DNA of 62,876 nt, the filler included, from Chlamydiia bacterium (lineage in GTDB: Bacteria; Chlamydiota; Chlamydiia; Chlamydiales; FEN-1388), in NCBI GenBank assembly GCA_903848235.1. It is 4 parts of 4 records of this genome, joined end to end, with 100 filler letters (N's around TTAATTAATTAA, not from the genome) between each part and the next. Parts side by side here need not be neighbours in the genome. Positions count along the whole stretch, not along the records: positions 28,055 to 40,239 come from CAINFV010000106.1; 3 more parts are not named here. One strand, given 5' to 3'. Numbering within the stretch: position 1 is the first letter of the stretch; every line of letters starts with the position of its first letter. The notes under the pieces are model-generated. The model did not search any database, was not told the origin of the DNA, and was given only the letters and a program-made list of their open reading frames with translations. A program made the translations under genes and the position numbers. Of this stretch, positions 28,055 through 34,955 are shown one piece after another.

Positions 28055-28427
28055 TCCTCTCGCTCACAAGAAGAGCTTCTGCAAAGTGCTCTGAAGATAC
28101 TGGGGCTAGCTTCTCCATCACAGCGCGAAAAATAGTTCGTACCTCGCCTTCGGTTGCATAGTGAGAATTCCAATACGATGGCGTGAATACACCAAGAGTG
28201 CCCCAAAATATACGGCCAGAAAGACTTTTGGATCCCACAGCAACAGCTGATAAATCCTTCAGCTCTCCTTCTTCCCCAATCACAACGAAACGAGAGTCCT
28301 TGATGATATCGGCAATCTTATCTTCCCATCCCTCTTTTAACCTCGTCGAGCCTGATTCAAATAGACCGTGCTCTTGGCATAACTCTTGCACATGGTCCAT
28401 CACGCCCTGCGGAATCCCAATCGACAT
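28055..28427 (-). CDS. Hypothetical protein, 3'-truncated by contig end
   Basis: ATG preceded by GGGAGG RBS; open to the contig edge; third gene of a co-oriented cluster. Confidence 0.7.
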
Positions 28428-28712
28428 AAGGCCTCCCTACGCTGAGGTTGTTAGTTAAGTTTTTTTCATACGCTTCGGAGATGTTTTGGGGCAAGGGGCA
28501 GTGTAAGGAATGAAACGAGAGGAAGAGGAGTGGAAGAGTTTTTATAACACGTCATTTGTGCGGTTGATCCACGCCTAGACTAGGATATGTTTAGTGGTGT
28601 ATGTGGTATGAGGGATGCAAGCGTAGTGTGTGTTCGAATTGTGAATACGACAGGGAAGAGTCTTTGCAACTCTTCCCTGTGTACAGCGATTTGTGAAAAT
28701 AACTTTGTGCGG

Positions 28713-33400: not shown

Positions 33401-34955
33401 TATTGATCTTCTCTAATGCCTCTAGTCCCTTGGTGCAGTCGGCCAATGTTTCCCCATAGGTTTTCTGCAGGGCGGATGACGTTTTAAGGATATCGGCTTC
33501 AAGACTCCTCGTCGTTGCACCAAGCTGGGATACCTGTTCTCCGAGAGTGAGGATGGTCTGTACTTTTTCGTTCAAAGGAGCGGCATCAGTGGCTCCATGG
33601 ACCTGGGGCCCGAGTTCTCCAACTGGAATACTGAGCTTTTTAGCTTGAGATACTATCTGACCATATTGTGCAACGACTTCGCTATAGCGCTTCAGCGCGG
33701 TCTCATGCTGTTGAGAGATTGTTTCTGAAGCTGATGCATGTGCAGCCCTTGCCCGTTTTTCGAAACCCTTTATCTGCGTCATTAGTTCGGCTGCCGTCTC
33801 TTTCAATGAAGGAATGTTGGGGAGACTATCGGATGCGGCTGGGAATGTGCGAACTTGCTCTAACGTTTTACGGTAGGCTGCCTCTAAGTCGACAGCGGTG
33901 TCAACACTCGCTTCTTGTGTCAAAGTCCCATTGAGGGCTTGGCTTTTTTCCTCCACAGTGCTTGTGATTGACCGTAAAGCTTCAACCGCTGCTCGCAGTG
34001 GTTTCAGGGCTGATTCAGATAATTTGGCGCGACCGTTTTCAAGAGCCCGAGTTGCTCGTTGTTCAAGAGGGCCAATATCAAATGCTGAAATTTTCACTAT
34101 TTTTGTTGGATTCTCGCTCTGTGCTTTTTGGAGTTCAGGTTTGAATTTTTCGATTAGGGTAAGTATGTGAGCGAATTGTGTCTCGAGCGCTGTGTGCTCC
34201 TTGGCAACGGCCTCTTCTTTGAGGCTTTGGCTTGTTTCTTCCAAAATCGTAACGGCTGCTTCTATAGGTTGGTATTGGCGGAGCAGTGTGTCCTCGACGT
34301 TTTCCATGACAGGAACCGATTTAGTGATGGAAACGGCTGCAGGAACGAATTGATCTTCGGGCTTGATGCGCTTGTCGGCAACGGGCGGTTCTGCGTCTTC
34401 GCGAAATTCTTTCGAAGCTGCTAGAGATTGGCTCTGAAGGGCTGGTGGGGGCCCGGCGTCTTTTATGACAGGAACCGATTCAGGGAGGGAAACGTCTGTA
34501 GGCGCGCGAGGCATTCCCCTAATTTCATTCAGCACTTTTTCGAGACTTTCGAGAGACTTTGTATATGGAGTCGTCTCAACCACCCTTACGCTGGATCTTT
34601 CGCCAATTGGTGGGGCGGACCGCTCGGATAATGTTCTTTTCTCATCCGTGACGCTCTTGTAAAGAGCCTGGATTTCAGTATCTTCGGCTTCTTTCATGTT
34701 AAATAAAAAATTATAAATAGACTTGCAAGCTCCTTTCAAAGCCCTGCCTAATGCGTTTTTGGGGACGGTCCACACGGACACATGGGGCGGGGATGTATCG
34801 GACTTGGAATGGGATATCCAAAAATCAGTTCTCTGGATGGTGGCAGACGAGATACGTTGGTCAAGTTCTGTTCTCGGGTTGCCGTGCTTGTCGCTAATTC
34901 CGAATTCTTCCAAGAGTCCGAGGACATGTGAATCGGGTTGAACTTCTAGTGACAT
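30405..34955 (-). CDS. 1516-aa coiled-coil/low-complexity protein with capping-protein-interaction (CPI)-like motif
   Basis: Long heptad-like region, acidic disordered region, LSHFTRARPQK motif, poly-Ala, helical C-terminal domain. Confidence 0.75.
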   Translation of the reverse strand: MSLEVQPDSHVLGLLEEFGISDKHGNPRTELDQRISSATIQRTDFWISHSKSDTSPPHVSVWTVPKNALGRALKGACKSIYNFLFNMKEAEDTEIQALYKSVTDEKRTLSERSAPPIGERSSVRVVETTPYTKSLESLEKVLNEIRGMPRAPTDVSLPESVPVIKDAGPPPALQSQSLAASKEFREDAEPPVADKRIKPEDQFVPAAVSITKSVPVMENVEDTLLRQYQPIEAAVTILEETSQSLKEEAVAKEHTALETQFAHILTLIEKFKPELQKAQSENPTKIVKISAFDIGPLEQRATRALENGRAKLSESALKPLRAAVEALRSITSTVEEKSQALNGTLTQEASVDTAVDLEAAYRKTLEQVRTFPAASDSLPNIPSLKETAAELMTQIKGFEKRARAAHASASETISQQHETALKRYSEVVAQYGQIVSQAKKLSIPVGELGPQVHGATDAAPLNEKVQTILTLGEQVSQLGATTRSLEADILKTSSALQKTYGETLADCTKGLEALEKINRQRAALSLTKNNSVESFRASVIQFQQLSADPSPVKLADLKKLLGQLSAAQKSQEAEVTQLFDAFCAARTGELEAIKASIGSPAESLDRQLLALKRNFDSEGATKKELDEFSQALTALKEIGTKLTAIEQGIATLPIDILSFATFYSKPMSIKVKLQETADNPTGKKISDLNRDIQEAEESLRTALLTKERLAQEQRTMDATIAQWEQTFTDYLKGDLKDLLQNIEKLSSTISLYQISADLRALFGTKTVDLIYRLNLAQRALKVNERAEFFWKKWIDGEDISLDDLPSRSEFQDGLEHTELTSIPDLSEAVKKSIEILIPIENFVSAQQGAVQRILRGVGGIFGWGGGTQAIWIDEHNKLVSGAALKDPTPEETDKIALMLSLGSELCRPLLSELPQARKEGWILNFKELQAVYTADKTPPIHKAAQAWIDTLSPSEKAAPVVLPVSQKAVKVPEAQREETETLVEVPAVLADEKEKEGLSEIAAAAALIDPKIVVHDIKKEELAKEKEALDKPFLAVSEPPVAAVEIHDDLVSPKKEDVLDKESSPASLIMPEVTERNESLGQSTPPPPEEVLSTQADSTVKVTLLDEGAAISVSVPPKPVGEAEQEEGDTLGQLGKGALVVPPLSLAAVEGHGALREETKDLTEASRASEVFQEGAEELVISGQGVTDTGVKESAREKEEADIPPPEVHTEAKPQEEVLQSIRETPERKPLSHFTRARPQKSHHDKSRAPEVKTRGFEEVHEEPPLAAAASIPEGTPRVEAVSKAVRGRPPMGLQFKVDLHDLKTAAEKQKKTPKAKDDRSIIDPKTKPTAAAAAATAAAPPLKATLLPVVRVTKPEQELPQALVRMVRPNRKMGLNLPSDGLPGDALSDYVVKEWDVQKSPQQAFDIALNILDYPEHIEFVLGKVFKPNVDPFKLLFIADTLAYGLKEKELKKYSRENLKDMLAPLLVAAFKACLDRERITEVMRYITKEATNSGSPVKPLYDLIKKGLTPPPKR

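Follow-up and report, generated by a model that had tools for sequence, protein, structure and literature searches.

Known effectors that act on capping protein and actin

Bacterial effectors that carry a capping protein interaction (CPI) motif are already known from Legionella; what would be new here is CPI mimicry in the Chlamydiota, for which we present a candidate cluster of three genes, A, B and C, beside murA in an uncultured freshwater relative of Chlamydia (GCA_903848235.1, hereafter G000). The window, meaning the whole stretch of DNA analysed, spans 62,876 nucleotides and joins four contigs with N linkers; the cluster lies on contig CAINFV010000106.1 (G000:C106; window 28055-40239), which ends at position 28055. 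On balance, we favour a reading in which A, B and C are genus-specific modular effectors, type III-secreted, that would remodel host actin through capping protein and actin at a membrane, either at the entry site or at the inclusion. Full-text literature searches, which miss most subscription papers, returned no published chlamydial CPI effector.

Which of the described systems does the cluster resemble? RavB of Legionella binds CapZ at 10.8 nM, needs three arginines to do so, and uncaps filaments (PMC12865202). It is a bacterial effector whose non-canonical CPI, L(X)6R(X)6RRLP, lies in a disordered linker between helical domains, and C and the A protein of G001, the sole other genome of the genus, keep its Arg-Pro spacing; however, RavB is type IV-secreted and has a phosphoinositide-binding domain undetected here, no homology is reported outside the motif, and the leading Leu is out of register in our sequences (PMC12865202). 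MavH, also from Legionella, recruits capping protein through its CPI and lowers actin density, and combines this motif with a WH2-like helix and a membrane anchor, a set with candidate counterparts here; but MavH is one small protein with a phosphatidylinositol 3-phosphate (PI(3)P)-binding domain (PMC10381072), whereas in our genome several genes, paralogous or adjacent, share out the parts. An earlier note on this DNA had cited the CPI proteins of eukaryotes; as these two effectors show, the motif occurs in bacteria too.

The CARMIL-type CPI consensus is given in the published text as LxHxTxxRPK(6x)P, and the list of fungal Bsp1 CPIs includes variants without the first Leu and His (PMC10881157). 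A is CARMIL-like in fitting LxHxTxxRP and matching PF16000, and C resembles the R[AS]xGP..RR.P half found in Bsp1, a protein that also joins proline-rich, WH2-like and CPI segments (PMC12803934, PMC10881157, PMC10651396). In contrast to CARMIL, Bsp1 and Aim21, our proteins have no LRR, PH or SH3 domains, carry half a consensus per copy, and contain no CARMIL-specific interaction (CSI) segment that we could identify.

Within the chlamydiae, SemD (CPn0677) of Chlamydia pneumoniae binds membranes by an amphipathic helix (PMC10182996), and SemD and TarP are type III effectors with an amphipathic helix, proline-rich regions and WH2 motifs (PMC10182996; TarP as cited in PMC10381072). The available text on SemD mentions no CPI (PMC10182996), A, B and C are likened to SemD by layout and not by sequence, and the TarP domain DUF1547 is found in neither genome. 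RickA of Rickettsia and the WASP/WAVE proteins (PMC11077975) resemble an unlinked paralogue of C, located outside the window, in which polyproline and WH2 precede what look like a central helix and an acidic tail, but its N-terminal domain differs and its terminal aromatic residue varies (Trp in G001, Phe in G000). By the tests applied the cluster is a member of none of these systems; by analogy, it would work like MavH, RavB and Bsp1 and be laid out like SemD.

A gene cluster confined to one genus

A (30405..34955, 1516 residues) consists of an N-terminal family domain, a long helical middle, a low-complexity linker with a CPI-like motif and a helical C-terminal domain; B (28713..30215, 500 residues) of a Ser/Thr-rich start, polyproline, a WH2-like motif and two C-terminal helical repeats; and C (28055..28427) is represented by its first 124 codons, the contig end cutting the gene just before the RavB-like motif of its complete copy. 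All three are co-oriented on the minus strand, with gaps of 189 bases (A-B) and 285 bases (B-C), and are divergent from murA (35177..36565, plus strand; TIGR01072 above cut-off), which serves as a synteny anchor and lies outside the system. The G001 locus reads C, B, A, an extra gene D (1018 residues), murA, an ATPase gene and mnmG, so that the order of A, B and C is as in G000 and murA-ATPase-mnmG is common to both; the G001 orthologues measure 843-875 (A), 651 (B) and 267 residues (C). The synteny that the earlier note had proposed to check is thus present, and its description of three co-oriented genes beside murA stands, though not its term orphans in the strict sense, since they have orthologues in G001 and paralogues in G000. 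Its word island fares less well: composition is ordinary, with G+C of about 0.46 at the locus against 0.475 in the genome, so that we describe the locus as a cluster specific to the genus and see no island in it.

None of A, B and C reaches a Pfam cut-off, and NCBIfam gave no match for A, B or the complete C. For MurA, the closest relatives share 56-68% identity and come mostly from environmental chlamydial genomes, and among the 40 best of 80 murA loci there was no match to A, B or C. Estimated completeness is 93% for G000 and 98% for G001. We infer that the host is a protist.

The stretch is present in four sequencing runs of one freshwater sediment study, and most matching contigs are at least 99% alike in three runs (the runs may include the source sample). 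These contigs also show clusters of variant letters and one 6-base insertion at window positions 28107-28122, 33400-33800 and 34786-34866, a sign of related strains whose alleles of A and C have diverged. No RNA dataset containing the stretch was found, and promoter and terminator scans gave counts near shuffled levels, with the minus-strand intergenic regions free of sites.

A RavB-like motif in C and in the A protein of G001

A complete copy of C, 286 residues long and 97.6% identical to the window gene, lies on another contig (G000:C158). The last 136 bases of C106 are identical in both copies, 17 differences lie further upstream in the gene, and ahead of the start codon the two sequences are unrelated. 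The contig break in C is explained by a collapsed repeat; contigs of the read sets extend 32-65 bases beyond it, and window C presumably continues as the C158 copy does. The C158 copy adjoins an internally deleted glmS remnant (an intact-length glmS is on C212), and short elements that recur on many contigs lie on either side, a context that suggests a recent duplication or a strain variant.

The motif R-L-x-V-x-x-R-x-x-G-P-x-G-R-[RQ]-x-P occurs in the C158 copy of C, in G001 C and in G001 A. Searched against 177,635 PDB sequences, the profile of these three sequences gave a single match, chain 9bli_C (E 0.16). Because 9BLI is one of the two entries that accompany the RavB-CapZ paper and its matched residues follow R(X)6RRLP, we infer that this chain is the RavB peptide bound to CapZ; in the database it carries the label 'Integrase'. 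In the R(X)6RR.P spacing, all three essential RavB arginines are present in G001 C and G001 A, and two of the three in the C158 copy of C; G000 A has no such pattern. The motif segment of C is 22/30 identical between the two genomes against 4/10 and 9/26 in the flanking linkers, and it falls in a region modelled as disordered (residues 107-203, predicted local distance difference test (pLDDT) <50).

From these resemblances, C probably carries a CPI of the RavB/Bsp1 type. Beyond the genus, the RavB-like profile found weak matches in short frames of just two other genomes among 400, an atlas search with residues 115-225 of C gave no usable match, and viral contigs yielded no capping-protein gene.

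A CARMIL-like motif in A

G000 A contains a CARMIL-like region (residues 1197-1257; 31185..31367, minus strand) in which a WH2-like helix precedes LSHFTRARP (residues 1231-1239; 31239-31265), a fit to the first half of the CPI consensus that includes the critical Arg. In an unselected genome-wide search this region was the top PF16000 (CARMIL_C) match in G000 (E 1.3e-4, 21.7 bits). It was also the top match among 400 genomes of the phylum, two other matches falling on a different part of the profile, and 14 control genomes gave no CARMIL_C match at E 0.002. CARMIL_C is the sole Pfam family matched by the stretch (E 4e-4), and the matched residues suggest that profile positions 202-227 correspond to the CPI. 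Chance levels of short patterns were set by comparing observed counts with those in the shuffled proteome of 1842 G000 open reading frames; the narrower pattern L.H.T..RP occurs once against 0.1 expected.

The CARMIL-type motif does not recur in G001 A. Instead, the RavB-type motif occupies the linker in which G000 A has its CARMIL-like motif, both linkers (disorder of the A linker being judged from composition alone) preceding the C-terminal domain. A may well carry a CPI in both genomes, of the CARMIL type in G000 and of the RavB type in G001. Could the G000 motif be a WH2-like actin binder instead, with a helix, a short linker and LSHF at the LKKT position, leaving one CPI protein (C) and two G-actin binders? 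The helix just upstream does match a Spire WH2, although at E 2.4 only, the spacing resembles the helix and LHHI of B, and A lacks the second half of the CPI consensus; yet the motif half alone matches CARMIL_C (E 0.09) where the helix half alone matches nothing, and the corresponding linker of G001 A holds a motif of the RavB type, so that we regard this alternative as improbable.

Polyproline and WH2-like motifs

B has a run of six prolines (residues 247-252; 29460..29477, minus strand), extended to 12 in its G001 orthologue; runs of at least six prolines number 5 in the proteome against 0.0 expected after shuffling. Downstream, residues 270-284 (29364..29408, minus strand) match a WH2-like pattern, a non-canonical helix ending in LHHI, and an atlas search links B to VopL-type WH2 proteins with a score of 0.79, which we take as a lead only. 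The polyproline that the earlier note ascribed to B thus holds in both genomes, whereas the WH2-like motif it placed alongside is far less clear. We tentatively propose that the polyproline gathers profilin-actin or SH3/EVH1 proteins and that the WH2-like motif may load G-actin, a role for B that is possible without being the likelier outcome. In C, an Ala-rich helix ending R-x-x-L-K is conserved in three sequences and, judged by eye, is a second WH2-like candidate.

The clearest WH2 is found in an unlinked, syntenic paralogue of C, at G000:C37:407-1213 (L007) and on G001:C20 (L011:1036-1869). It comprises 14-15 prolines and a canonical WH2, after which a central-like helix and an acidic tail can be made out by eye. 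Its sole PDB match in G000 is an N-WASP WH2 chain (E 0.035), and the G001 orthologue is the top Pfam WH2 match of that genome and terminates in a Trp-containing acidic stretch, the position of the terminal aromatic being held by Phe in G000. From this layout, the paralogue is a candidate Arp2/3 activator of the RickA/WASP kind. A further protein of 1510 residues with 12 prolines (G000:C94:12789-17320, open at the contig end) combines, at residues ~1043-1100, a WH2-like motif with a central-like helix and a Trp-containing acidic stretch.

WH2 proteins occur in 34/401 genomes of the phylum at E 0.05, and in 6/401 above the Pfam cut-off. Of 24 WH2 and related loci, nine have the canonical pattern, seven of those nine with polyproline, and no convincing CPI pattern was found at the 24 loci within the 3 kb examined. 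Since WH2 is not rare in the phylum and no CPI accompanies it at those loci, the capping-protein motifs are the unusual part of the cluster. Canonical WH2 motifs, mostly after polyproline and in some cases in tandem (L118), occur in nine other Chlamydiota genomes (L116-L121, L126, L130, L136); we found no published report of them.

A family built from shared domains

The N-terminal domain of A (residues 1-165; 34461..34955, minus strand) is a distant relative of that of C (hhalign 67%, E 5e-5, 94 columns), and each of the two domains has one unlinked paralogue in both genomes, those of A being at G000:C121 and G001:C3. Profiles of the two domains matched 2/300 genomes of the order, both from this genus, and C had matches in 0/21 other genomes of the family; the N-terminus of B gave no alignment to those of A or C. 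Within the A domain, a cationic amphipathic helix (residues 67-84; 34704..34757, minus strand) is a candidate membrane anchor: in all three members of the A family tested, its hydrophobic moment lies at the 99th-100th percentile of G000 open reading frames and its net charge is +3 to +4.

The C-terminal domains are shared in part as well. B contains two helical repeats (residues 343-386 and 440-483; 28767..29189, minus strand) related to the C-terminal domain of C, and a profile of three C-type C-terminal domains ranks B first among the non-C proteins of 1847 (E 0.0011). The C domain is modelled as a four-helix bundle (pLDDT ~90), its best structural score is a non-specific Z of 6.3 (FliG), and Foldseek gave no match at E 0.001. 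A ends in its own helical domain (30408..30920, minus strand), conserved in G001 at 34% in alignment. Its model is of low confidence (pLDDT 53), with non-specific solenoid matches of Z 7.9 at best (Efr3) and CID domains close behind; a likeness to CID/VHS folds was dropped, the structural matches being non-specific.

G000 A is about 670 residues longer than G001 A, and part of the extra length, residues 851-960 (32076..32405, minus strand), resembles the C-terminus of D, which in G001 forms a gene of its own separating A from murA. The local score of 57 exceeds all 1000 shuffles (maximum 47), for a segment that was picked by eye and that whole-protein BLASTP did not report. The longer A with its D-like part suggests shuffling.

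Homologue searches returned for the C-terminal domain of A its two known copies alone among 8000 candidates, for B itself alone among 7999 scored candidates, and for C, among 1.84 billion representatives, the G001 protein and three fragments of 89-115 residues, none of which spans the motif. A metagenome scan confirmed 0/361 pattern matches.

Might A, B and C have nothing to do with actin and instead be rapidly evolving, low-complexity proteins of the surface or the inclusion, with motifs that arose by chance? The bare patterns do occur at chance frequency and no family reaches its cut-off, but a single small paralogous family combines polyproline, WH2-like and central-acidic motifs with two that are CPI-like, and WH2 above the Pfam cut-off in 6/401 genomes indicates that actin mimicry is real in the phylum. 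We regard this explanation as very improbable.

How strong is the case for capping-protein binding?

Several observations weigh against reading the cluster as directed at capping protein. Conservation rests on shallow depth, the family being represented by two full genomes and three fragments; any such motif in the window's own copy of C would lie beyond the contig end; and the window was itself picked out of a large scan. For the RavB-like motif, the PDB match is weak (E 0.16) and was missed by two single-sequence searches; in each of the three copies the Leu of L(X)6R is displaced by two positions, five residues before the first Arg instead of seven; the strict RavB pattern has no matches; and the loose core R.{6}R[RKQ].P is no commoner than chance predicts (16 observed, 16.2 expected). 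For G000 A, the motif is without the consensus Lys, the RR of RavB and the final Pro, the strict CARMIL consensus has no match in the proteome, L.H.T..R[PA] occurs once against 1.1 expected, the CARMIL_C score of 21.7 bits is below the curated cut-off of 25, and E 1.3e-4 per genome becomes about 0.05 across 400 genomes. The WH2-like motif of B is without the usual Gly, is degenerate in the G001 orthologue, and matched neither Pfam, PDB nor a profile of ten chlamydial WH2 motifs. The CAP-ZIP_m profile had no match in either genome, all motif scores are under curated cut-offs, and a CPI look-alike in yeast, Inp51, failed to bind capping protein.

These points temper what the earlier note had claimed of A: its CPI-like motif is real as LSHFTRARP within the top CARMIL_C region, but amounts to the first half of the consensus, in a pattern that with R[PA] is at chance. 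Conservation of the motifs in homologues, a point raised in that note, is found in part, with CPI-like motifs in both A orthologues (of different types) and the C motif and polyproline kept, but with the WH2-like motif of B degraded.

The subthreshold scores also fit an alternative in which A, B and C are secreted effectors whose CPI-like stretches are basic Pro/Gly-rich linkers, or SH3- or membrane-binding segments, with actin reached indirectly, as by SemD and TmeA, via adaptors bound by the polyproline and the helical C-terminal domains. The RxxP/PxxP-rich context fits such an explanation, as does the combination of amphipathic helix, proline-rich linker and helical C-terminal domain, which is the SemD layout, and the four-helix domain of C is well folded with no specific structural match. 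Against it, two independent unselected searches each gave a capping-protein ligand as the top or sole match, and the C motif is more conserved than its flanks; we consider this alternative unlikely. Returning to direct binding, we judge it quite probable that at least one of the motifs binds capping protein.

Secretion and a proposed mechanism

Both genomes encode SctV, beside which G000 has a chaperone gene and a gene that we take to be CopN-like, and three CesT-family chaperones are present in each of the two genomes; an injectisome and chaperones for type III effectors are therefore available. B starts Ser/Thr/Pro-rich, with 8 and 11 such residues of 25 in the two genomes against a background of 4.7 (standard deviation 2.2); the starts of A and C do not (3-4 of 25). 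A, B and C are very probably secreted by this system. TarP-type DUF1547 was found in 0/2 genomes at E 1, and this result, the CPI-like motifs at the locus in both genomes and the SctV-CopN-chaperone cluster agree with the earlier proposal of an actin-directed effector cluster distinct from TarP.

The genes, their order, the shared domains, the motif resemblances and the secretion system are observed, and from them a conditional sequence of events can be drawn. A, B and C would be injected into the host, where A would dock on the inner membrane leaflet through its cationic amphipathic helix. The CPI motifs of C and A would then wrap the capping-protein stalk, which would concentrate capping protein at the bacterium and weaken its hold on barbed ends, as the polyproline of B collects profilin-actin or SH3/EVH1 adaptors; the WH2-like motif of B may load G-actin. 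Activation of Arp2/3 by the unlinked C paralogue would complete a dense local branched actin network, serving entry or shielding of the inclusion.

The earlier note had envisaged a pair in which A uncaps and B elongates. The evidence lends no support to so neat a division: the better conserved CPI-like motif is in C, the WH2-like motif of B is weak, and a CPI can recruit or remove capping protein. The CPI of MavH recruits and that of RavB uncaps, so the effect could run in either direction; with a candidate Arp2/3 activator in the family, we give recruitment and uncapping equal odds.

Neighbouring genes

An ATPase of the AAA_14/DUF4143 type lies near A (window 36775-37962), and a similar-looking ATPase (G000:C121:1625-3019) adjoins the paralogue of A. 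Downstream of mnmG and a lipoate ligase gene is a tandem family of large paralogous proteins of 658-1160 residues (G000:C159; L003:15218-16000). On a neighbouring contig of the window, two paralogous genes for proteins of ~816 residues without a Pfam family (21002-23452 and 25499-27954, the second open at the contig end) are likely further effectors. Another contig encodes an F-box and LRR protein (window 40728-42041) and a 1359-residue protein (42095-46174) with a weak OTU-like match (E 0.02), which are candidate eukaryote-like ubiquitin effectors.

Implications for chlamydial biology

The entry and life in the host of environmental chlamydiae without TarP are poorly known. Each of the motifs described here is a peptide of 30-60 residues, short enough for a direct test against purified capping protein and actin. 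If they bind, chlamydiae would have come to target capping protein independently of Legionella; the variant L(x)V(xx)R(xx)GP(x)GRR(x)P would in addition broaden the definition of the CPI. A bolder possibility, somewhat on the unlikely side, is that the genus rebuilt a complete minimal branched-actin kit by duplicating a single N-terminal domain and exchanging short motifs. The kit would consist of an activator of Arp2/3, a protein that feeds in G-actin and profilin, and two adaptors that hold capping protein at the membrane, CARMIL- and RavB-type CPIs having been swapped at the same place in orthologues. If true, it would be the first case of capping-protein control in the chlamydiae and a natural setting in which to learn why some CPIs recruit and others uncap.

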